The notes: generated by a model not told the origin, from the letters alone. A DNA stretch of 41,556 nucleotides from a virus (IMGVR_UViG_2802429245_000005), one strand, 5' to 3'. Counted from the first letter of the stretch, positions 3,139 to 39,468 are shown. Translations and numbers: made by a program.

Positions 3139-3358
3139 GTTTTCCACCGTTTATATGCATAACTACCTCCTGAACAGTAAAGCATTATGCATGATAAACC
3201 ATTTATGGTTTTTTGTTACTTCAACATCGTCAATCCCCTGTTTTCATGCCGATAATAAGGCTCACCTTTTACATAACACTGAAGAAACAACAGTACAGAA
3301 ATGATTCAAACTATGGAGATCGGGTTGAATACCGCGCCATCAAATGGCGCGGTAGCGA

Positions 3359-3655
3359 TCAAATAGAGAAATAAATACAAAAACAAAAAATGACAGGAAC
3401 AGCAAAATCCAACAGACTTCCCACATCCCACACGCGTGGGTCAAAACCTCCCCACCATGGCATGTTGATACGTTTCCCTTTCCCAAACTTTTCTATCCAG
3501 CGATATTCTGCCTGGGTGTGTTCACGCGCAATGAAGAACGTACAACCGGCTATCGCACCGTAAGCCCAGTTTCCTGTTATTATTCCGAAGAAACATTGCA
3601 CAATTATTGATGCAATAGCATGGACAAAAGGAGAATAGTCAATATTATTCATCAT
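3359..3655 (-). CDS. Small integral membrane protein of unknown function
   Basis: ATG ATG at 3650-3655 preceded by GAAGGTG. About 98 aa, hydrophobic (IASIIVQCFFGIITG..., FAVPVIFCFCIYFSI). Followed by a 10-bp perfect-stem hairpin at 3331-3354. Confidence 0.45.
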   Translation of the reverse strand: MMNNIDYSPFVHAIASIIVQCFFGIITGNWAYGAIAGCTFFIAREHTQAEYRWIEKFGKGKRINMPWWGGFDPRVWDVGSLLDFAVPVIFCFCIYFSI

Positions 3656-6426: not shown

Positions 6427-6530
6427 GTTAAATCTCCAGATAGTCGCAGCACCCGTTGCGCCGCATATCTGGTTATTCTATTACCTGAAAAACCACATAT
6501 GGATAGAAAGACTGTAAATACGAATAGATA

Positions 6531-6545
6531 TTACCTTTCAGGTAA
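6531..6545. promoter_or_regulatory. Palindromic operator-like site TTACCTTTCAGGTAA
   Basis: Exact TTACC-N5-GGTAA between the divergent tailspike (start 6426) and gene 6622. Confidence 0.6.
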
Positions 6546-6621
6546 TTTGCAAAACGTGCTGGATAGCAAACAAATTATTTGCTACTGTATAAATATACAG
6601 TTATTGCATGGAGAAGATAAG

Positions 6622-7630: not shown

Positions 7631-7650
7631 TGCTTTTCCTCACAATAACA

Positions 7651-7665
7651 TTACCTTAAAGGTAA
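7651..7665. promoter_or_regulatory. Palindromic operator-like site TTACCTTAAAGGTAA
   Basis: Exact motif 21 nt upstream of the start of minus-strand gene 6902-7630. Confidence 0.6.
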
Positions 7666-7743
7666 TATCTTGCTTTCAGGTGATCAAGCATTAAACGCAA
7701 CCAACCAAATACGGTTGATTTTAATATTTATTCGCGTTTATCA

Positions 7744-7758
7744 TTACCTTTGCGGTAA
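7744..7758. promoter_or_regulatory. Palindromic operator-like site TTACCTTTGCGGTAA
   Basis: Exact motif at the head of the structured leader upstream of the antirepressor gene. Confidence 0.6.
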
Positions 7759-7792
7759 ATTTACATCGCACTCCTCTTGTGCCATAGTAATC

Positions 7793-8723: not shown

Positions 8724-8789
8724 CGGGCGGCGGCACAGGGATGTGCCTTTAAAATAATCATTGGCGATGTGATGTAGATTCGCGTAATA

Positions 8790-8804
8790 TTACCTTAAAG
8801 GTAA
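8790..8804. promoter_or_regulatory. Palindromic operator-like site TTACCTTAAAGGTAA
   Basis: Exact motif immediately after a -10-like TAATAT (8785-8790) and 27 nt before ATG 8831. Confidence 0.6.
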
Positions 8805-8830
8805 ACCATGTGTTTACATGAGGAGGAGAT

Positions 8831-26395: not shown

Positions 26396-26485
26396 ATCAA
26401 TGACTCCGTACGCAATTAAATTATTACCAATTTAACCACATATGATTTATTTATCGTAGATAGTTGACATTTAACGCACGAATTA

Positions 26486-26500
26486 TTACCTTTCAGGTAA
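26486..26500. promoter_or_regulatory. Palindromic operator-like site TTACCTTTCAGGTAA
   Basis: Exact motif next to TTGACA (26464-26469), upstream of the tRNA region. Confidence 0.6.
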
Positions 26501-26822
26501 CCAAAGAGTTCATTCCGGTTACTAACCTGACTGGCTTGTCGTTAAATTGAACAGGTGGAGTGAGCTTTTATTTTGAGCAGTACGGCGTATGGCACATGCG
26601 CCGATAGCGGTCTGGATACGTTTAAGGGGCACCCTCCCTTGCTCGGGCAAACGAACCAGGTAGCCGGAATGTGCAAGTCGAGCGGTTTTATTCCGCGCAC
26701 GGGGATTCACCATCCCGGCGATTCGGTGTGACACCTCGGAAGAGACGAGGGTACAACGATGAGGGCATTTATGGAGCCGCGACAAAGTGTGGTGCCTTAA
26801 CAGGCTAAGTGCTCTCAGCGTT

Positions 26823-27087: not shown

Positions 27088-27102
27088 CCTGGTGACTGAA
27101 CG

Positions 27103-27117
27103 TTACCTTGAAGGTAA
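27103..27117. promoter_or_regulatory. Palindromic operator-like site TTACCTTGAAGGTAA
   Basis: Exact motif 33 nt upstream of ATG 27150, downstream of the tRNA terminators. Confidence 0.6.
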
Positions 27118-27149
27118 GATAACAAAAACATTTAACATCTGGTTTAGAC

Positions 27150-27755
27150 ATGTTCGAGCAATTTAAAGAGATCGCATCATCGGCTATTAGCACAACGTCA
27201 GAGAGAGTCCGCAACCCAGCACTTGGGGCATTTGTGTTTTCGTGGTGTTCTTTTAACTGGAATCCACTATTATTTTTATTCTTCAGTAAGTCAGGAATTG
27301 AAGAAAAAATAAATTATATATCTTCCCATAGTGATGCGTACCACTCACTCTTATATCCAGCTTTATGTGCATTCGCGCTGTGTGTAATAGTTCCATGGTT
27401 TAACAATATAGTGGTGATGTTTCAAAAAATTCCACTACAGAACATCGATAACTTCAAACACAACAAAAGCCTCAGGGATGTTAAAAACGCCATAGAATTG
27501 CGTAAGCTTGAGGCACAAAGGGACATTACATACGACAGAGTTAAGGTTGAGTTTGAGTCTGAGATTCAATTCTATAAAAATGATTTAATCAAGCACCAAG
27601 AGTCTTTGAATTCTTTTTTGCAGGAAAGAGATTCCCTTATTGAAAAAATAATGGCGCTTGAAAAAGAACTTGCAGAAGAAAAAATAAAATCCAATACCAG
27701 AATTGCAAATAAGTTTAACTCAAGGAACAATCGCAACACAGACAATGCTGCTTAA
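27150..27755 (+). CDS. AT-rich membrane protein with C-terminal coiled coil; accessory gene
   Basis: 201 aa on the strand opposite to the flanking late genes. Two hydrophobic segments then a heptad-like Glu/Lys-rich tail. Operator motif at 27103-27117. Confidence 0.6.
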   Translation: MFEQFKEIASSAISTTSERVRNPALGAFVFSWCSFNWNPLLFLFFSKSGIEEKINYISSHSDAYHSLLYPALCAFALCVIVPWFNNIVVMFQKIPLQNIDNFKHNKSLRDVKNAIELRKLEAQRDITYDRVKVEFESEIQFYKNDLIKHQESLNSFLQERDSLIEKIMALEKELAEEKIKSNTRIANKFNSRNNRNTDNAA

Positions 27756-27759
27756 AACT

Positions 27760-29229
27760 TTATGAAAACGGATCGTACTCAGTAATAGCTTTCCCCTGCT
27801 GCTGCCGTGGGTCATTAGTTTTCTTGGCTACCGGGAAGGCGAACGTTAGCAGCAGCGCATCACCTTTACCCGGCGAACGCCCAAGTCGCTCTTTGATATC
27901 TTCCTTCGGTTCGATAACGATTTTACCGTCCACGCGAACTTTGTACTCTGCCGTCGACAGGTCGTCCGCTGTTTCCTGGTCATCCAGCATCCCGCCCAGC
28001 CTCAGCCATGTCTTGCATGAGTTGAACATCTCCCCACGCTTGTTGAGCATCTGCGGGTCAGTAGACGCGCCACCGAACGGAACAAGTTGCCATGTACGAC
28101 CCCAGCCGTCACCGATTGACTTCAGACCAGTTCCGTAACCGAAGTCGATGAACACTGCGTCAGCCTGGTACTGGTCTTCAAAGTCAGCGATACGCTTCGC
28201 CATTATCAGATCGTCAGTGGTCTTGTTGCCAGTCCACAGCACCTTACTGTGCAGCCCCTGCCGCAGGTATATCACAGCGTCATCAACGCCGGAGTATGCA
28301 GGGTCAACGCCGATTATCACCGGAGCATGTGCCACCTGCGCAGCAGTTACCACCCGTTTCATTGCCTCGTCAGTAAGACCGGTAGGGATAAACTGCAATT
28401 CAGATGCATCAGGAAATATGCCGCGCACACGGATTTTAACGAAGTCGCTGTCTTCCCCGTAGTCATCAACCCATTTCTGTAATTGCTGCTTGTTAGTACC
28501 TTCCACCGTCCGGCTGTCAATCTGTGCAGTTTTCCAGCGGTGTTTATATTTGCGGAAACATTCGCGGAAACGCCCGGTGTTACGTGTCGGGTTTCCGAAC
28601 GCCACCCAGATAATCTCAGTGTCTTCGTCCGTAAGCGCACCCTCAGCAACTTCCCACACCAGATCCGCAATGTTCGACGCTTCATCGAATACCACGATGA
28701 TGCGTTTGCGCTCATTGTGTAATCCGGCGAATGCCTCAGTGTTGTGCTCAGACCAGGGGATTGCGTCAGCTCGCCACCGCTTGTCGTGCCCAGGGTCATT
28801 GCTGTACATCGCGGTAGCGGTACAGGTAAACCAATCTTTCGTGATAGCAAGGTTCGACCACTTGATAATTTCCGGCCAGGTCTTCGTTCGTAGCTGGTTG
28901 TCGGTGTTGGCGGTCACCACGACCTTACAATCCTCGCAAGTGGACATGCCCCAGTTGATCAGCATTGAGATGAATGCTGATTTACCAATACCGTGACCAG
29001 AAGCACGTGCCAGCATAAGCGGCTGATAGCGCGTCTCTGGATTCTGCAGATGATCACGTATCTCTCGGAACGCATCGGCCTGCCACTGACGTGGACCGGT
29101 GGCATGTGCCAGTTCAGTCCCCTCTTCCCCCCACGGGAACGCATAGAGGGCATAGCCAAGTGGATCGTGAGTGAACCCTGCAATATCCTCGATTAACTGC
29201 TCTTCAGGAGATAACGCTGTATCTGTCAC
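27760..29229 (-). CDS. Terminase large subunit
   Basis: 489 aa. GTG start at 29227-29229 overlaps the small-subunit stop, with RBS AGGATGG. Walker-A-like GHGIGKS and a C-terminal nuclease-type acidic region. Confidence 0.85.
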   Translation of the reverse strand: MTDTALSPEEQLIEDIAGFTHDPLGYALYAFPWGEEGTELAHATGPRQWQADAFREIRDHLQNPETRYQPLMLARASGHGIGKSAFISMLINWGMSTCEDCKVVVTANTDNQLRTKTWPEIIKWSNLAITKDWFTCTATAMYSNDPGHDKRWRADAIPWSEHNTEAFAGLHNERKRIIVVFDEASNIADLVWEVAEGALTDEDTEIIWVAFGNPTRNTGRFRECFRKYKHRWKTAQIDSRTVEGTNKQQLQKWVDDYGEDSDFVKIRVRGIFPDASELQFIPTGLTDEAMKRVVTAAQVAHAPVIIGVDPAYSGVDDAVIYLRQGLHSKVLWTGNKTTDDLIMAKRIADFEDQYQADAVFIDFGYGTGLKSIGDGWGRTWQLVPFGGASTDPQMLNKRGEMFNSCKTWLRLGGMLDDQETADDLSTAEYKVRVDGKIVIEPKEDIKERLGRSPGKGDALLLTFAFPVAKKTNDPRQQQGKAITEYDPFS

Positions 29230-29822
29230 TGATTACCATCCTGACGTTCTTTGAGTCGCTTCCTGGCTGCTGCTATGCGATCAGCAATTGTCACATTCAC
29301 ATTAACATCCAGACGTTCTTTGAACGCGTTGACATCAACATGCTTACCAATCAGCTCAAGGTTCTTCACCTTGTCAGGCCATTTAATTTTTTTGAGGATT
29401 GTCTCTATCGAATCCTCGTTCATGTTCATGATGGTCGATGACAGATCAAAGCCACTAAGCGTAGTACGCCAGATTTTCGGCCACTCACGGATTGGTTTAA
29501 GGCTCCCATCGTCGTTGAGGATGTCGATCACGTCCATCTGGTCGATCTCCACCAGGCGCATGAGAACGTAATCAGCACTGACGCGCATTCGTTTGTTGCG
29601 CTCCTCCATCAACTCGGCAATCCGTTTCTGAATGCGTTCATCGCGCATCATGACACTGGCTTTAACTGCCGCTGTATTTGGGGAGAATCCTGCGTTAATC
29701 GCAGCCTGAGTCTGGTTTTCAGGCGTTTTGATGTATGACTGGCAATAAGCCTCCTGCATTGCTGTGAGCGGCTTAAATTGCGTTGATTTGCGTTTATAGG
29801 TTTTAGGTTCAGCAGGCATCAT
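29226..29822 (-). CDS. Terminase small subunit
   Basis: ATG ATG at 29817-29822 with GGTGG upstream. 4-nt stop/start overlap with the large subunit. Confidence 0.65.
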   Translation of the reverse strand: MMPAEPKTYKRKSTQFKPLTAMQEAYCQSYIKTPENQTQAAINAGFSPNTAAVKASVMMRDERIQKRIAELMEERNKRMRVSADYVLMRLVEIDQMDVIDILNDDGSLKPIREWPKIWRTTLSGFDLSSTIMNMNEDSIETILKKIKWPDKVKNLELIGKHVDVNAFKERLDVNVNVTIADRIAAARKRLKERQDGNQ

Positions 29823-29839
29823 AACCACCGTGGTAATTG

Positions 29840-29854
29840 TTACCGTTGTGGTAA
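29840..29854. promoter_or_regulatory. Palindromic operator-like site TTACCGTTGTGGTAA at the late-operon start
   Basis: Exact motif between the minus-strand terminator (29866-29891) and the terminase small subunit start (29822). Nested GGTAA/TTACC half-sites around it (29832-29861). Confidence 0.55.
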
Positions 29855-29865
29855 TAGTACCATGC

Positions 29866-29891
29866 AAAATAAAGCCGCCATAGTTGGCGGC
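29866..29891 (-). terminator. Rho-independent terminator between the early region and the terminase gene
   Basis: 7-bp perfect stem GCCGCCA / TGGCGGC followed on the minus strand by UUUAUUUU. Confidence 0.6.
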
Positions 29892-29940
29892 AGTATTCAA
29901 AACCCATCAAATTCATCATGCATAATCTACTCGTGACATG

Positions 29941-30279
29941 TCACACTATTAATTTCGTTTCATGCCAGCCTTTAGTCACCCAGCATTGCGAGTCACCATT
30001 ACACGGGCATGAATTAACTGGAACTCTCTCGCCGCACTTACCGCAACGTTTTCTGCTGATCGATTTTATACGCCCGCGCACGCGTGCATCATCCTGGCGG
30101 ATCAGTAACGCTATATACTCACCAAATTCGTAAGGCGCACGCCCGGGGCGACGCGTGGCACAGTTACGCTCCAGCATTTCAATTTCCTGAGCATCAAGCA
30201 CAATTTCCAGCTTACGCACACCAGATGCAGCTTGTCTGGCTCTCTGAGCGGCTTTGCGCTCTGCTGCTGATTTAGCCAT
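29941..30279 (-). CDS. Small DNA-binding-like protein with C-terminal Cys-rich zinc ribbon; candidate late-gene regulator
   Basis: Basic/Ala-rich N-terminus (MAKSAAERKAAQRARQAASGVRKLEIVLDAQEIEMLE) and C-terminal CGKCG...CPCNGDSQC. Last early gene before the terminator and terminase. Confidence 0.5.
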   Translation of the reverse strand: MAKSAAERKAAQRARQAASGVRKLEIVLDAQEIEMLERNCATRRPGRAPYEFGEYIALLIRQDDARVRGRIKSISRKRCGKCGERVPVNSCPCNGDSQCWVTKGWHETKLIV

Positions 30280-30553
30280 CAATATTTACCTTTATCGCGA
30301 ACACCTTTACCGGTTTATCGCCGAAGTGCGGATGTGTGATTGTCTTGATTTCATATCCGTCATACGGAACATTAATTCTGCGGCTGGAATCGTCGCGCTT
30401 CGGATATCCCTTTGTGATAATCAGGCGGTCGTACTCGCGGAACATAATTCGCTTATTCCAGTAGTCATTACACAGGCGATACTCTTCCGTTTTCTCTCCG
30501 CGAATCATGGCATCGAAGTATTCACCTTTGACGGCAAGTTGCAGGTTAGCCAC
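30272..30553 (-). CDS. Small protein, possible ASCH/PUA-like fold
   Basis: GTG start at 30551-30553 preceded by strong AGGAGGAAGG. 93 aa. Fold assignment from motif recall only. Confidence 0.5.
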   Translation of the reverse strand: MANLQLAVKGEYFDAMIRGEKTEEYRLCNDYWNKRIMFREYDRLIITKGYPKRDDSSRRINVPYDGYEIKTITHPHFGDKPVKVFAIKVNIDG

Positions 30554-33390: not shown

Positions 33391-33393
33391 GAT

Positions 33394-33408
33394 TTACCCC
33401 TGAGGTAA
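33394..33408. promoter_or_regulatory. Palindromic operator-like site TTACCCCTGAGGTAA
   Basis: Exact motif directly upstream of the start of gene 33046-33390. Confidence 0.55.
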
Positions 33409-33455
33409 TTAAAAACCACATAAGACACGAAATCAATAGAGTTTAGAATATTTTG

Positions 33456-33470
33456 TTACCAAACAGGTAA
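33456..33470. promoter_or_regulatory. Palindromic operator-like site TTACCAAACAGGTAA
   Basis: Exact motif between the P-like gene end and gene 33046-33390; 62 bp from the previous site. Confidence 0.55.
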
Positions 33471-33507
33471 TTATCAAGACGTAAAAAAATGCGCTATCGC
33501 GCTGGTA

Positions 33508-34284
33508 TTACTTGATAAATCCTGCCGCCTTTCCCCGCCTGTATTCCTCCATCAGCCACTGCGCCGGTGTTATTCCCCCAAGGGTGGCGGCGTTAGGCAT
33601 GCACCCGAAACTTCGCCCTGGTGGATGGTAAACGTCTCTCCCTGTGTCCGGAGGTGTACTCATGGGCTCTGGCTTTGCCTGTATGCTGATCACCGGATCG
33701 GGTATCTGCTGTCCGGAAGCCACCTTTTTCGCCCAATCATCGAGCAGCCTGCGCGCGTGTTTCTCAACCTCAATCTCGCTAAGCTGGCGCTGATACATTG
33801 CACGGCGGGTATCACATACGACCCAGTACATAACCGGATGCCGCCACGGGAATCTTTCGGGACCACCAGGATATAAACTTTTTTCCTTGCTGTACCGGTG
33901 AAACTCCGCCATCACATCGTCAATGGTGACGCCAAGAACCATCTTGCTGTCTTTACACCACTTGATAAATTGCCCTGGCGACGGCCAGAACGGAGATTCA
34001 CTGGCGCGGGCGTGGCGCATACCAGCGTTAACCTGTTCCATTGTAGTGATCCCATTCTCCAGAAACGCAAGCATCCATTGCTTACGGAATTCATTAAGTT
34101 TGTTCTGCTCCCTTATGGTCGAAACGCTTGCAGGAAATGCAGCCTGTAACTGGACAAATAGTTCATTGAAAATTCTAGCGACCTGCTCCTTTTTGCCATT
34201 GCTGTCACGCCGCTCTTCATGCACAGCAACACCATGCTCACGTAAGCGATCGTACTCATTGAGAAGTTCTGGAGTTGATTTCAT
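33508..34284 (-). CDS. P: Replication protein P-like helicase loader
   Basis: Strong resemblance to lambda P over IFNELFVQLQAAFPAS...RKQWMLAFLENGITTMEQVNAGMRHARASESPFWPSPGQFIKWCKD. RBS AAGGGG before ATG. Confidence 0.8.
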   Translation of the reverse strand: MKSTPELLNEYDRLREHGVAVHEERRDSNGKKEQVARIFNELFVQLQAAFPASVSTIREQNKLNEFRKQWMLAFLENGITTMEQVNAGMRHARASESPFWPSPGQFIKWCKDSKMVLGVTIDDVMAEFHRYSKEKSLYPGGPERFPWRHPVMYWVVCDTRRAMYQRQLSEIEVEKHARRLLDDWAKKVASGQQIPDPVISIQAKPEPMSTPPDTGRDVYHPPGRSFGCMPNAATLGGITPAQWLMEEYRRGKAAGFIK

Positions 34285-35086
34285 CCCACACCCCTTCTAT
34301 CCAGTCAGTGTTATTCCAGTCAAGCTCATCGCTTTTCCCGACGTTTTTTGATTTTCCCCTGATATGATTTACGTGCCTGGCGAATTTTTGTTCCCACTGA
34401 ACCTGCGTGAACACTTTGCCCTCAGCCATCCAGTAATCCCGGAATGCAGCAAGTTCAGCAGGTGTAAATTCCGGTTCCGGCAGGGCCGTTCCCCACAGCG
34501 CAGCACGCCGTCGAAAATCCGGCGACGGATGCCAGCCATCGGTCATCGGAAATTTCCCAATAGGTTCACTCAGGCCATCCAGAAATGCAGGTTCTGCCAC
34601 CTGCAACGGCGTACCGTTCGCTTCACTGGTCGGATCACTCTCGCGCGCGTGTGCTATGTGTGGGGTTTTATATATATCTTCCTCTTCCTCTTCCTCTGGT
34701 AACTCTTTTTGTAACGCTGTTGGCGTTACTTTTTGCGTTACTCGTTTTCGATGCTCTGCCACTCTTCTATTCGTAAGTGCACGTTTTTTCGATGATTCTC
34801 CATTGTGTCGCTCAAAGTTTGGAAGAATTAGTTTGCCGTCATGATAAGCAAGCCATCCGACGCTAATGAGGGCGTCAGCAAATCCTGTAATAAAAGCGAG
34901 TCTATCAAGTACTCCTTTTGTAACGCTGCCAGCGTTACCGTCTATTGTTTGCTGGTCAGCCCATGCCCATATACGAACCAGCTTTCCAAGAACAGCATCT
35001 GGATCAATACCCAGAATTTCTGCTATCTGAAAAATTTCAGGTTTATCAGGAGTGATAACTTCAACCTTAATCCAGCTGCTTGCCAT
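34256..35086 (-). CDS. Replication initiation/organiser protein with DnaT-like C-terminal domain (O-equivalent)
   Basis: C-terminus GKFPMTDGWHPSPDFRRRAALWGTALPEPEFTPAELAAFRDYWMAEGKVFTQVQWEQKFARH matches the DnaT C-terminal domain. GAGGGG before ATG at 35084-35086. Confidence 0.7.
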   Translation of the reverse strand: MASSWIKVEVITPDKPEIFQIAEILGIDPDAVLGKLVRIWAWADQQTIDGNAGSVTKGVLDRLAFITGFADALISVGWLAYHDGKLILPNFERHNGESSKKRALTNRRVAEHRKRVTQKVTPTALQKELPEEEEEEDIYKTPHIAHARESDPTSEANGTPLQVAEPAFLDGLSEPIGKFPMTDGWHPSPDFRRRAALWGTALPEPEFTPAELAAFRDYWMAEGKVFTQVQWEQKFARHVNHIRGKSKNVGKSDELDWNNTDWIEGVWDEINSRTSQ

Positions 35087-35279
35087 AGGTTTCCCCTCTT
35101 GCACTCTTTAGTGCACAAGCAAATTCATTACGATGGCGGTTGGCGCTATTCATTGCACATTCAACACATGTTCCGTTCAGAACATACCTTTCAGAGAGAT
35201 GGCCGTGACGGCACCGCTTTCCTGTGAAATAGCGATTTAACCCGGCTTTTGCGGCCTCCATTCTGGTTACTATCTTCAA
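35067..35279 (-). CDS. Small Cys/His-rich zinc-binding-like protein
   Basis: 70 aa with CRHGH...CVEC. Start is either TTG 35279 (AAGGGG upstream) or ATG 35261. Confidence 0.45.
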   Translation of the reverse strand: MKIVTRMEAAKAGLNRYFTGKRCRHGHLSERYVLNGTCVECAMNSANRHRNEFACALKSARGETYGKQLD

Positions 35280-35357
35280 TTTTTCCGCCCCTTTTTGTTA
35301 TTGATATTGGCTATTTTGCACAATTGGAAAATTTGATCAACCAGATTTGGTTTTTTA

Positions 35358-35372
35358 TTACCTTTGAGGTAC
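35358..35372. promoter_or_regulatory. Operator-like site TTACCTTTGAGGTAC (one mismatch)
   Basis: Between the terminator after the cro-like gene and the 70-aa zinc-binding-like gene. Confidence 0.4.
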
Positions 35373-35380
35373 GAATAGAT

Positions 35381-35406
35381 ATGAAAAGACCGCCGGATGG
35401 CGGTCT
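35381..35406 (-). terminator. Rho-independent terminator after the cro-like gene
   Basis: 8-bp perfect stem AGACCGCC / GGCGGTCT with a U-rich tail on the minus strand, 22 nt after the cro-like stop. Confidence 0.6.
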
Positions 35407-35427
35407 ACAGAGGGTTGTGGATGGATA

Positions 35428-35658
35428 TCATGAGTAGAAGAAGTATGCCAGTTCTGCTTTTGAGCGCAGCCATTGTCTTGTTTTACAGGCTTTAAAAAGC
35501 CCATTCATCAATACCTTACCTGGCATTTTGCGCTTACCTGTTAAGTGAGTCTGGATATAGTGACTCGTCGTTCCGGCTTCCTGTGCGAAGGCTTCACGCT
35601 CATCCGGAGTAAGTGCAAGCCAGTGCTTTTTGAAATCGAAATGTCCGTTATCGCTCAT
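35428..35658 (-). CDS. Cro-like small HTH regulator, first gene of the leftward early operon
   Basis: 76 aa with HTH-like LTPDEREAFAQEAGTTSHYIQTHLTGKR. Divergent from the repressor-like gene. Intrinsic terminator directly downstream. Confidence 0.6.
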   Translation of the reverse strand: MSDNGHFDFKKHWLALTPDEREAFAQEAGTTSHYIQTHLTGKRKMPGKVLMNGLFKACKTRQWLRSKAELAYFFYS

Positions 35659-35694
35659 AGCTATTGCCTGATATTTATTTCAGATAATAAATAT

Positions 35695-35709
35695 TCACCC
35701 ATAAGGTAA
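35695..35709. promoter_or_regulatory. Operator-like site TCACCCATAAGGTAA (one mismatch) in immunity region
   Basis: First of three sites between the divergent cro-like (start 35658) and repressor-like (start 35813) genes. Confidence 0.45.
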
Positions 35710-35725
35710 CAAAAATCAAGGATAG

Positions 35726-35740
35726 TTACCTATGAGGTGC
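35726..35740. promoter_or_regulatory. Operator-like site TTACCTATGAGGTGC (two mismatches) in immunity region
   Basis: Second site; degenerate right half. Confidence 0.35.
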
Positions 35741-35742
35741 AT

Positions 35743-35757
35743 TTACCTGTTGGGTAA
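35743..35757. promoter_or_regulatory. Palindromic operator-like site TTACCTGTTGGGTAA in immunity region
   Basis: Exact motif; third site, nearest the repressor-like gene. Confidence 0.6.
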
Positions 35758-35812
35758 TATTGCTTTAAATTGAATCATCTACTGATTCATATATGAGGCG
35801 ATTTTCCAGAAA

Positions 35813-36397
35813 ATGAAAAGTATCCAGGACGTCCGCAGGCAAAATCTCAACGACTTGATCGACCGTGAATTCAATGGTGTTCAGACGCGGATGGCAGAAA
35901 AACTTGGAACTCAGGCAAATCTGGTAAACCGCTGGGCTCTTGGCAAGAAGGTTATCGGCGACCAGGTTGCGCGAAAAATTGAAGCTGCCGCCAATAAACC
36001 CCGTAACTGGCTTGATATCGATCGCTCGCTTTCTCAGGAAGGTTTTCAGCCTGTCGGCCCAAGCGACATTGGTCAGCTGGCGGCTCACAACCTGGAACGC
36101 TGGATGAGCGAAAGCCGCGACCTTTCAACACAGGGAAAACTTCACCGCGCATCCGGCGTCGCCCAGGTAACAATCAGCCGCCTGTTAAACAATGAGGTCA
36201 GCGTTTCCATTTCCACCCTGGAGAATGTTGCATCCGCATTCGGGCGTCACGGCTATGAATTACTGATTCACCCGCACGACCCTGCGACCATCAACTATGA
36301 CCGCTCGCGCTACGCATTGTTACCCGAAACCGAGAAAGCAAAGATCGAAAGTTACATTGAATTTGTCATCAACCAGAACGAAAAAAATAAACAATAA
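35813..36397 (+). CDS. Repressor-like protein with two XRE-type HTH domains (candidate lysogeny repressor)
   Basis: 194 aa with two HTH-like segments and no S24 peptidase domain. Monocistronic: strong terminator at 36418-36444. Operator motifs cluster between it and the cro-like gene. Confidence 0.7.
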   Translation: MKSIQDVRRQNLNDLIDREFNGVQTRMAEKLGTQANLVNRWALGKKVIGDQVARKIEAAANKPRNWLDIDRSLSQEGFQPVGPSDIGQLAAHNLERWMSESRDLSTQGKLHRASGVAQVTISRLLNNEVSVSISTLENVASAFGRHGYELLIHPHDPATINYDRSRYALLPETEKAKIESYIEFVINQNEKNKQ

Positions 36398-36417
36398 AAC
36401 TATAGTTTTCAGCAAGT

Positions 36418-36444
36418 AAGCCGCCTCATGGCGGCTTTTTTATT
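36418..36444 (+). terminator. Rho-independent terminator after the repressor-like gene
   Basis: AAGCCGCC-TCAT-GGCGGCTT followed by TTTTATT. Confidence 0.75.
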
Positions 36445-36454
36445 GCCATCAAGA

Positions 36455-36469
36455 TTACCTTATGGGTAA
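36455..36469. promoter_or_regulatory. Palindromic operator-like site TTACCTTATGGGTAA
   Basis: Exact motif about 20 bp upstream of TTGACA (36489-36494), ahead of the recombination operon. Confidence 0.6.
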
Positions 36470-36488
36470 TTTTTTTAGCTCATATCTA

Positions 36489-36516
36489 TTGACATCAAAC
36501 CAAATACGCATAATCA
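36489..36516 (+). promoter_or_regulatory. Sigma70-like promoter candidate for the recombination operon
   Basis: TTGACA at 36489-36494 and -10-like CATAAT (36509-36514) or TAATCA (36511-36516). Spacer length is non-optimal, so assignment is tentative. Confidence 0.4.
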
Positions 36517-36531
36517 TTACCCCAACGGTAA
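36517..36531. promoter_or_regulatory. Palindromic operator-like site TTACCCCAACGGTAA
   Basis: Exact motif immediately downstream of -10-like CATAAT/TAATCA (36509-36516); paired with the site at 36455. Confidence 0.6.
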
Positions 36532-36550
36532 CAGACCGAGGTAACAAATT

Positions 36551-39059: not shown

Positions 39060-39172
39060 GTGTGCTGCTAAGGCACTGGAGCAAATGGTCAGGATGGTAC
39101 TTATTCCTGGCCTCTGTTTCAGCATGGCTTTATCTGCTGGCATTAATTTTCAGAGAGGGTTGGATTAAGTGA
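39056..39172 (+). CDS. Unannotated 38-aa single-TM peptide ORF
   Basis: ATG overlaps the AlpA-like stop (ATGA) and its TGA overlaps the GTG of the next gene. Peptide MSVLLRHWSKWSGWYLFLASVSAWLYLLALIFREGWIK. Confidence 0.3.
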   Translation: MSVLLRHWSKWSGWYLFLASVSAWLYLLALIFREGWIK

Positions 39173-39468
39173 AAAAGTTAAGCCGACTTGAAAAATATCA
39201 CATGAACAAGGTTTCAATGCGCAGTCCGTCAAAGATTGTCGCCGTTACTCCTGCGGCGATAGAGATCGAAAAACGCGCGATTGAAAGAGAGAAAAAAGGG
39301 CAGTTCCGCATTGCCGCTCACCTTTGGCTTCAGTGTATGGATGTTGCTTCTGGTGATGTTGAGCGTGCGAGGATCGCGGTTCGCAGGGACCAATGTATCA
39401 CAAAAGGTAACGGCCTTCGCCGTGGCGACTATAGCGGCATAGGATGTTGTGGGGTGGTTTATGACTAA
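39169..39468 (+). CDS. Small regulator-like protein (ANR-like) preceding the methyltransferase
   Basis: GTG start with AGAGAGGG upstream. 99 aa. Family assignment from recalled motif AHLWLQCMDVA only. Confidence 0.5.
   Translation: MKKLSRLEKYHMNKVSMRSPSKIVAVTPAAIEIEKRAIEREKKGQFRIAAHLWLQCMDVASGDVERARIAVRRDQCITKGNGLRRGDYSGIGCCGVVYD

Follow-up and report, generated by a model that had tools for sequence, protein, structure and literature searches.

A putative ribbon-helix-helix protein with a four-cysteine module and its linked palindrome at the early-late operon boundary of an epsilon15/phiV10-like prophage

The small gene at positions 29941-30279 (minus strand) of a 41,556-nucleotide viral DNA, IMGVR_UViG_2802429245_000005, here called the window and meaning that whole stretch, very probably encodes a DNA-binding protein of the ribbon-helix-helix (RHH) class, which carries a putative zinc site of four cysteines (Cys4) behind its DNA-binding domain. 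The gene is accompanied by a palindrome of the form GTGAC-N2-GTCAC and, judging from the joint distribution of the two, this palindrome is probably the cognate site of the RHH-zinc protein. The explanation that we consider best overall, and hold with moderate confidence, is that the protein uses the palindrome at the 3' end of its own gene to act on transcription at an operon boundary. The window is an Escherichia coli prophage of the phiV10/epsilon15 type (Uetakevirus), with 96-99 % identity to several such phages across the region of the gene.

An earlier note on this DNA had placed an open reading frame (ORF) at 29941-30279. It is present on the minus strand, with its ATG at 30279 and a TGA stop at 29943-29941, and its translated product has 112 amino acids (MAKSAAERKAAQRARQAASGVRKLEIVLDAQEIEMLERNCATRRPGRAPYEFGEYIALLIRQDDARVRGRIKSISRKRCGKCGERVPVNSCPCNGDSQCWVTKGWHETKLIV). 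The ORF list, a PHROG profile and tblastn identify it as a member of the phiV10 p55/epsilon15 gp49/N15 gp46 family (PHROG 536), with tblastn identities of 77-99 % to Uetakevirus genes and 35 % to N15 gp46; phiV10 p55 and epsilon15 gp49 are the last genes of their records. The start codon overlaps the stop of the preceding ASCH-like gene (ATGGCTAA), and the two are therefore co-transcribed in one operon; the ASCH-like gene (PHROG 625; 30272-30553, minus strand) was recognized by Pfam and PHROG scans and by the annotation of phiV10 p54. The palindrome, GTGACATGTCAC (29933-29944), overlaps the TGA of the 112-residue reading frame. Beyond it lies a strong intrinsic terminator on the minus strand (29865-29891, from a terminator scan), GCCGCCA-acta-TGGCGGC followed by TTTATTTTG, with its stem at 29891-29874 and its T-run extending to 29865; an equivalent terminator is annotated in the epsilon15 and phiV10 records. 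Next comes the first late gene, terS (Terminase_2; 29226-29822, minus strand, likely ATG 29822; PF03592 E 1e-29, PHROG 51), and then terL and the structural genes. The description of our gene as the last one before the late-operon terminator thus holds for its position but not for the name of the terminator, which separates the early-right operon, of which this is the last gene, from terS and the late operon.

Family membership and predicted fold

Residues 1-111 of the protein match positions 2-114 of the 115-position PHROG 536 profile (E 1.6e-54). To this extent the protein is already known: the family is catalogued, and both PHROGs and RefSeq label it 'transcriptional regulator'. It is small yet widely distributed: a search at 90 % clustering gave 726 homologues, and at 50 % the family makes up 154 clusters among 1.84 billion representatives; phage records of Vibrio, Escherichia, Salmonella, Klebsiella, Yersinia, Enterobacter, Aeromonas and Pectobacterium contain the gene. 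Conservation was read from an alignment of 63 clean full-length members, which are 27-78 % identical to the query.

The N-terminus, MAKSAAERKAAQRARQAASGVRK, is rich in Ala and Arg/Lys, as the earlier note had said. It forms a basic, Ala-rich helix including ERKAAQRARQ (codons 1-22, 30214-30279, minus strand; AlphaFold2 helix 5-19, pLDDT 87), and within this helix lies the best-conserved motif of the family, RK-x2-QR-x-R, of which R13 is invariant and R8 almost so. Other conserved segments are the strand G-(I/V)-x-x-(I/V/L)-E-(I/V/L)-x-L and the sequence PY-x3-EY-x3-LI. The AlphaFold2 model built from the family alignment (pLDDT 92.1, pTM 0.67) consists of helix 5-19, an extended segment 20-29, helices 30-42 and 52-74, a cysteine module and helix 100-107. 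Its putative RHH core (codons 23-74, 30058-30213, minus strand) comprises the strand KLEIVL, helix 30-42 and the long helix 52-74, an N-terminal strand followed by two helices, as in solved RHH proteins. No curated RHH family was matched at threshold; the query gave a sub-threshold match to the LexA-regulated protein YbfE (E 0.05), and sub-threshold matches to RHH_5, RepB-RCR_reg, RHH_1 and TacA1 appeared in one or two of the 63 members (E 0.01-0.07). Foldseek searches of the PDB and BFVD were uninformative.

The cysteine cluster that had been pointed out is confirmed as C79-G-K-C82 ... C91-P-C93-N-G-D-S-Q-C99. C79, C82 and C99 are invariant in the 63 homologues and C91 is retained in all selected full-length members, while C93 and C40 vary across the family; the family motif is therefore C-x2-C-x8-C-x7-C. 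The module formed by these four residues (codons 79-99, 29983-30045, minus strand), which is followed by the short helix 100-107, is modelled at a pLDDT of about 90. Of the zinc ribbon that had been suggested here, what is borne out is a set of four conserved cysteines within a short module modelled with confidence, and not a ribbon as such; the module would presumably bind zinc. We conclude from the model that residues 1-74 are likely to comprise a basic arm and an RHH DNA-binding domain, and residues 79-99 a putative Cys4 metal site. The protein would differ from known RHH proteins (Arc/MetJ/CopG; the antitoxins MazE, TacA and ParD; NikR) in the great length of its second helix, in the Cys4 module that follows this helix and that the matched RHH proteins lack, and in having its candidate site at the gene's 3' end rather than at its promoter.

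The palindrome and its linkage to the gene

The palindrome at 29933-29944 is a perfect one of 12 bp. It occurs once in the window, against an expectation of 0.02 from shuffled sequences, and no further copy was found there at 0 or 1 mismatch. Among close relatives it stands at the stop codon of the gene in 76 of 78 informative loci, and what follows it varies among the 78: a terminator, a ribosome-binding site with the next gene, or a LexA-box promoter. An extra copy was present in the available DNA of 46 close loci, mostly about 2.3 kb downstream, after terL. At the corresponding position the window has a 201-aa ORF (27150-27755, plus strand) that is convergent with terL and has no Pfam match; relatives have there the second GTGACATGTCAC, a terminator and other small reverse-oriented genes, so that the second palindrome has been lost in the window.

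The linkage extends to divergent lineages (50 % identity or less), 10 of 15 of which have an exact copy between -40 and +230 nt of the stop, and two more a variant, GTGACCGGACAC, in two copies each. A copy in such a 270-nt interval has a chance of about 1e-4 per lineage, as calculated from the shuffle expectation, and the association of gene and palindrome is therefore not accidental. The divergent proteins concerned share 31-47 % identity with the query, and their genes lie in unrelated flanking DNA. At the stop codon, epsilon15 has a palindrome identical to that of the window and phiV10 one with a single mismatch; in N15 gp46 (GTGACTGGTCAC) and in a P2-like Yersinia phage (GTGACGCGTCAC, with a degenerate second copy 30 nt further) the palindrome overlaps the TGA. 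It likewise overlaps the stop in L095 and L098 and lies 14 nt past it in L104 and 7 nt past it in L110; in the Mu-like phage L090 it falls within a C-terminal extension and is translated as V-T-G-H. Vibrio phages have it 138-226 nt downstream, with another immediately before terS, and L094 and an Aeromonas phage share the same variant, GTGACCGGACAC.

Exact copies in complete genomes with the gene number three in epsilon15, three in N15, two (plus one with one mismatch) in phiV10, and one each in the Yersinia phage and the window, and there is none in lambda, P2, Mu and P22 (160 kb together). The copies in N15 (L099; 28550, 33237 and 39269) all have a TG/CA centre and are located at the gp46 stop, after gene 33 upstream of a terminator, and within repA. 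The copies at the gene stop and at the end of the structural operon are 50.7 % of the genome apart in epsilon15 (L008, 39612 and 19517) and 50.1 % apart in phiV10 (L007, 39101 and 19493), and in both phages two copies bracket terS-terL. A reverse scan of viral contigs containing the 14-mer GTGACATGTCACGG found the family gene in 50 of 120 stretches, a figure to be read with the knowledge that a 14-mer is expected by chance in a viral collection of that size and that several of the gene-less matches are clear coding coincidences. Indeed, GTGACATGTCAC also encodes V-T-C-H within CxxCxGxG zinc-finger motifs of unrelated phage proteins (L119, L120, L137, L148, L186, L198, L211 and L219), and raw counts of the palindrome are therefore inflated. 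The guess in the earlier note that the protein binds the nearby palindrome receives strong, though indirect, support from its accompanying the gene family across very different phages.

The half-sites are constant and the two central bases variable, and the asymmetric variant GTGACCGGACAC is unable to form a hairpin; together these features favour recognition of double-stranded DNA by a symmetric dimer. The central dinucleotide showed no clear pattern of covariation with residues of the strand or the N-terminal helix in 16 sequences. The same features bear on an RNA-level regulator of the Mu Com or lambda N type, whose Arg-rich N-terminus would bind a GUGAC-NN-GUCAC hairpin in the transcript and so govern either how the following gene is translated or whether the neighbouring terminator forms. 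The Arg-rich helix does resemble ARM peptides, the palindrome often lies, in fixed orientation, at a ribosome-binding site or 3-10 nt before a terminator hairpin, and all four copies of the asymmetric variant have the same orientation. However, the RNA stem would be just 4-5 bp long and is invariant without covariation while the 'loop' varies, the variant cannot fold, the predicted fold is of the kind that binds double-stranded DNA, and one N15 copy is reversed, inside repA. The hairpin reading is thus disfavoured by the palindrome itself, and we regard an RNA-level regulator as very improbable.

The phage palindrome has the same half-sites, GTGAC and GTCAC, as E. coli matS, the 13-bp site (consensus GTGAC[AG]N[CT]GTCAC) bound by MatP, which is also an RHH protein (PMC3603311, PMC3330122). 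Further points of likeness to the MatP/matS system are the basic helix before the strand and the small number of dispersed sites per replicon. The spacer, however, is 3 nt in matS and 2 nt in the phage palindrome, and the phage sites, unlike matS, keep to gene ends and terminators. This likeness could be a product of convergence, or it could be meaningful. An alternative to our proposal is that the protein is a MatP-like organizer of phage DNA, without a role in transcription, that would bind scattered matS-like sites, bridge or mark them through its zinc module, and so affect DNA compaction, packaging or segregation, or interact with host MatP, MukBEF or the divisome. Besides the shared half-sites, such an organizer would account for the presence of one to three intergenic sites per genome, including the two sites half a genome apart and the two bracketing terS-terL in epsilon15/phiV10, and for the hosts of the family, Enterobacterales, Vibrio and Aeromonas, all of which are among the taxa that have MatP. 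It would also suit the absence of the true 13-bp matS from every prophage in one study (PMC3603311) and from the eight phage genomes that we scanned. Against it stand the N2 spacing in place of N3, the lack of detectable homology to E. coli MatP (hhalign probability 1.1 %, BLASTP E 13), and the absence from the 112-residue protein of the four-helix bundle and coiled coil of MatP. In addition, with one site each, the window and the Yersinia phage offer no partner for bridging within the genome, and an organizer does not predict the strong, oriented association with terminators described below. We therefore consider a MatP-like role unlikely.

Transcription at the operon boundary

At all three copies in epsilon15 and phiV10 a gene stop is followed by the palindrome and then, 1-45 nt on, by an intrinsic terminator. 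More widely, a strictly defined terminator lies within 70 nt of the palindrome in 68 of 184 distinct contexts compared with 16 of 920 control positions, a comparison that is weakened by the lack of phylogenetic independence of the 184 contexts, though several unrelated terminators are included. The gap is usually 3-10 nt. For terminators no more than 45 nt away, the order palindrome-hairpin-T-run occurred 52 times and the reverse order six times, and five of these six loci also have a forward terminator.

Some of these contexts are worth recording in their own right. In a siphovirus tail operon (L179, 2452-2850) the TGA of a gpM-like minor tail gene lies within GTGACATGTCAC, with a terminator 8-9 nt on and then gpL, and at least ten more viral contigs are arranged similarly (L111, L124, L142, L155, L159, L165, L167, L169, L195 and L205); the family gene was not seen in the available DNA of contigs of this type, and neither the phage nor the E. 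coli collections contain a close relative of them. In the Uetakevirus relatives L079, L080, L082 and L087 (about 3336-3420) a LexA-box promoter, TTGACT ... TACTGT-N8-ACAGTA, begins 6 nt or less after the palindrome and is followed by a small inserted gene and terS. A LexA box is situated upstream of tum, 165 nt past the palindrome, in the P2-like Yersinia phage, and a LexA-box-like sequence 295 nt past it in N15. The nearness of palindromes to SOS-type elements may be coincidental.

We envisage that the basic N-terminal helix and the RHH domain would dimerize and read double-stranded DNA, and that the C-terminal four-cysteine module would bind zinc and serve either to stabilize the protein or to make contact with a partner. 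As a product of the early-right operon, the protein would then occupy the palindrome at 29933-29944 and, once bound, would modulate the passage of RNA polymerase (read-through or termination) toward the terminator and terS. An effect on transcription is the most economical reading because the gene is expressed from the early-right operon, its site precedes the terS terminator, and the sites elsewhere are oriented and upstream of terminators. That the effect is specifically one on termination or read-through is a tentative suggestion, which we find possible rather than probable. As to the direction of any transcriptional effect, which we can only infer, antitermination would suit a late switch, and the layout would accommodate enhanced termination or a roadblock just as well; that the protein is, on balance, a positive regulator of late genes in the phage of the window is possible but rather improbable.

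The gene had been compared in the earlier note with the Ogr/Delta-type activators, and an activator of this kind would be a zinc-finger protein that, from sites upstream of the late promoters, brings in RNA polymerase and so switches on the late operon. In favour of such a role are the location of the gene directly upstream of the late operon, the conserved Cys4 motif, the 'transcriptional regulator' label, the lack of a recognizable Q, Ogr or Mor/C homologue in the early region of the window, and a weak sigma-70-like match in which GTGACA of the palindrome serves as the -35. The general likeness to Ogr/Delta of P2/P4 is that of small, basic, cysteine-containing phage regulators, but family, cysteine spacing and fold are different. 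The Ogr_Delta profile (PF04606) matched neither the query nor any of the 63 members, although the same profile library finds P2 Ogr and vB_YenM_06.16-2 gp44 at E 1e-21; hhalign against P2 Ogr gave 0.3 %, and the family motif does not fit the C-x2-C-x22-C-x4-C pattern of Ogr/Delta. The identification as an Ogr/Delta-type activator consequently fails. Other phages, moreover, have the family gene together with an established or recognizable late regulator of their own: in the P2-like Yersinia phage vB_YenM_06.16-2 it follows gene A and coexists with a true Ogr (E 1.8e-21), in N15 gp46 is found together with Q (gp40, E 1e-110), and in a Mu-like phage it neighbours GemA and a Mor-like protein whose score, 24.7 bits, falls just short of the Pfam cut-off of 24.9. 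Late activation as the general role of the family is excluded by the presence of Q, Ogr (and the Mor-like protein) in these phages. In the N15, P2-like and Mu-like phages the gene occupies the distal part of an early operon, and in Vibrio phages it closes the early genes, with the lysis and terminase genes coming next. No copy of the palindrome precedes any of the other late transcription units in the window, many relatives have a ribosome-binding site right after it with no room for a promoter, and the start of the late operon has repressor-type operators instead. The late promoter with the palindrome as its -35 (GTGACA-18-CATGAT in the window, GTGACA-17-TAAATT in epsilon15) was rejected, both matches being weak, the spacing to the terminator not being conserved (45 versus 22 nt) and other copies of the palindrome lacking a -10. 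We hold an Ogr/Delta-like activator to be decidedly unlikely.

In layout there is a parallel with lambda Q: our gene closes the early-right operon, and directly behind it come a candidate DNA site and a terminator guarding the late genes. With polymerase at the U-tract, the RNA 3' end would have passed the palindrome by some tens of bp, and the Q-binding element has a similar geometry relative to the paused complex; lambda Q, moreover, contains a zinc finger. The phage protein nevertheless has no homology to Q (no Q-family profile was matched in the Pfam and PHROG scans, whereas the same library recognizes N15 gp40), is much smaller and has an RHH fold, and there is no convincing promoter at the palindrome. 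An undescribed system, widespread in temperate phages and Q-like but of unrelated fold, in which an RHH-zinc protein bound upstream of terminators or at the heads of later operons would decide on read-through by polymerase, is a speculative extension to which we give rather little weight. In such a system the half-sites of host matS would have been copied and, in the phage of the window, the terminator between the early-right operon and terS would be opened.

A different departure from our proposal is suggested by the cysteines. The family profile, searched against PDB sequences, matched YbiI (E 0.015) and TraR (E 0.027), and hhalign gave 46 % against TraR alone. With the TraR/DksA fingers (F TraR, YbiI, P2 Orf82) the family shares a helix and then C-x2-C-G-x2-(L/I)-P ... 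G-x3-C. The product might thus act in the manner of TraR/DksA on RNA polymerase, the palindrome being instead the site of a host factor, for example MatP, or a signal for recombination or moron boundaries. Variable moron genes do adjoin palindromes, and some phage contigs have palindrome-terminator units with no family gene in their readable DNA. The TraR similarity, however, covers only about 31 columns and drops to 23 %, below significance, once the profile is built from two sequences, TraR and P2 Orf82. Cys91 stands in for the second CxxC pair, which is not kept, the C-x2-C-x17-C-x2-C finger is not kept, and PF01258 (zf-dskA_traR) is not among the families listed for members. The N-terminal RHH domain is incompatible with TraR-like insertion into the secondary channel, the would-be channel helix being buried behind it, and the control phages of the same hosts have no palindrome, which general use of it by a host factor would not lead one to expect. 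The similarity to TraR/YbiI appears to be a lead, not a membership, and the probability of this explanation is, in our estimation, low.

The gene-less palindrome-terminator units just mentioned also weigh against the proposal of an RHH-zinc protein acting at its own palindrome, and so do several other observations. Neither Pfam nor NCBIfam scans of the 112-aa protein produced a match reaching threshold. Three divergent lineages (L096/L097, L106/L107 and L108/L109) lack the palindrome, and the single copy in the window leaves its other late transcription units unmarked. In many contexts there is no terminator and the palindrome abuts the ribosome-binding site and ATG of the next gene; no single transcriptional mechanism fits all contexts. 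The hosts encode MatP and have matS with the same half-sites, so that a host protein is a possible binder of the palindrome. In the literature that we searched there was no published binding experiment on the family or the palindrome, and a search with the palindrome sequences returned nothing relevant. Taking the evidence as a whole, we infer that it is probably the family protein, rather than a host factor, that binds the palindrome.

Neighbouring features and biological meaning

The earlier note had offered a dispersed motif as the other possible target of the protein. This motif, ATTACC-N5-GGTAAT, has 16 matches in the window at two mismatches or fewer, against 1.1 expected (6530-6546, 7650-7666, 7743-7759, 8789-8805, 26485-26501, 27102-27118, 29821-29855, 33393-33471 and 35357-36532), which cluster at the immunity region and before most transcription units. 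Two adjoining copies (29821-29837 and 29839-29855) lie between the terminator and terS and abut the terS ribosome-binding site. The matching epsilon15 sites, one of which is 20 nt before terS, are annotated 'repressor', which makes this most probably a motif of the prophage repressor (35813-36397); as a target of the RHH-zinc protein it is unlikely, and we set it aside on the strength of the same annotation. From the distribution of the motif it seems that many lytic units, the late operon among them, are under the direct control of this repressor. A perfect LexA-box-like sequence, CTGTATAAATATACAG, is found at 6585-6600, near the operator-like motif at 6530-6546, and equivalent boxes near a small leftward gene are found in epsilon15 (19841) and phiV10 (20822). 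The epsilon15-like phage SPC32H is said to have a LexA-controlled antirepressor, with which the box at 6585-6600 is in keeping.

Upstream of the gene on the minus strand are a replication initiator (34256-35104), a P-like helicase loader (33508-34284) and then a resolvase-like gene and Ead/Ea22, DUF551, DUF4752 and ASCH-like genes. In the early-left operon, the gene at 39169-39468 (plus strand; PHROG 868, 'transcriptional activator'), whose phiV10 counterpart is annotated PerC-like, is a second candidate positive regulator of this phage. The phiV10 record has a long form of terS with 224 aa (L007, 41-715), to which a TTG-start ORF at 29226-29900 (minus strand) is equivalent in the window. The first codons of this long ORF span the intrinsic terminator, and the ATG at 29822, behind GGTGG and matching the epsilon15 annotation, is the more plausible start. 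The intergenic RNA at 29800-29960 (minus strand) folds far better than shuffled sequences (z -3.7) because it contains the terminator hairpin and the self-complementary operator repeats.

We found no experimental work on the PHROG 536 family, and no account of late-gene switching in phages of the epsilon15/phiV10 type, in the literature searched; nor, to our knowledge, is there an account of how such phages activate their late genes. The combination of domains and the linked palindrome appear to be unreported. What is new is a cis element that accompanies the gene through podoviruses, N15-like phage-plasmids and P2-like, Mu-like and Vibrio phages, and that gives an anonymous 'regulator', situated at the exact early-late junction of an epsilon15/phiV10-type phage, a concrete and testable candidate DNA target. 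If the role of the protein is merely autoregulatory or that of a minor accessory, the finding is an ordinary one. However, the position of the palindrome upstream of terminators and the identity of its half-sites with those of matS raise questions about the control of termination and about cross-talk with host chromosome organization, and should either the terminator or the matS connection be functional, the interest of the finding would be greater.

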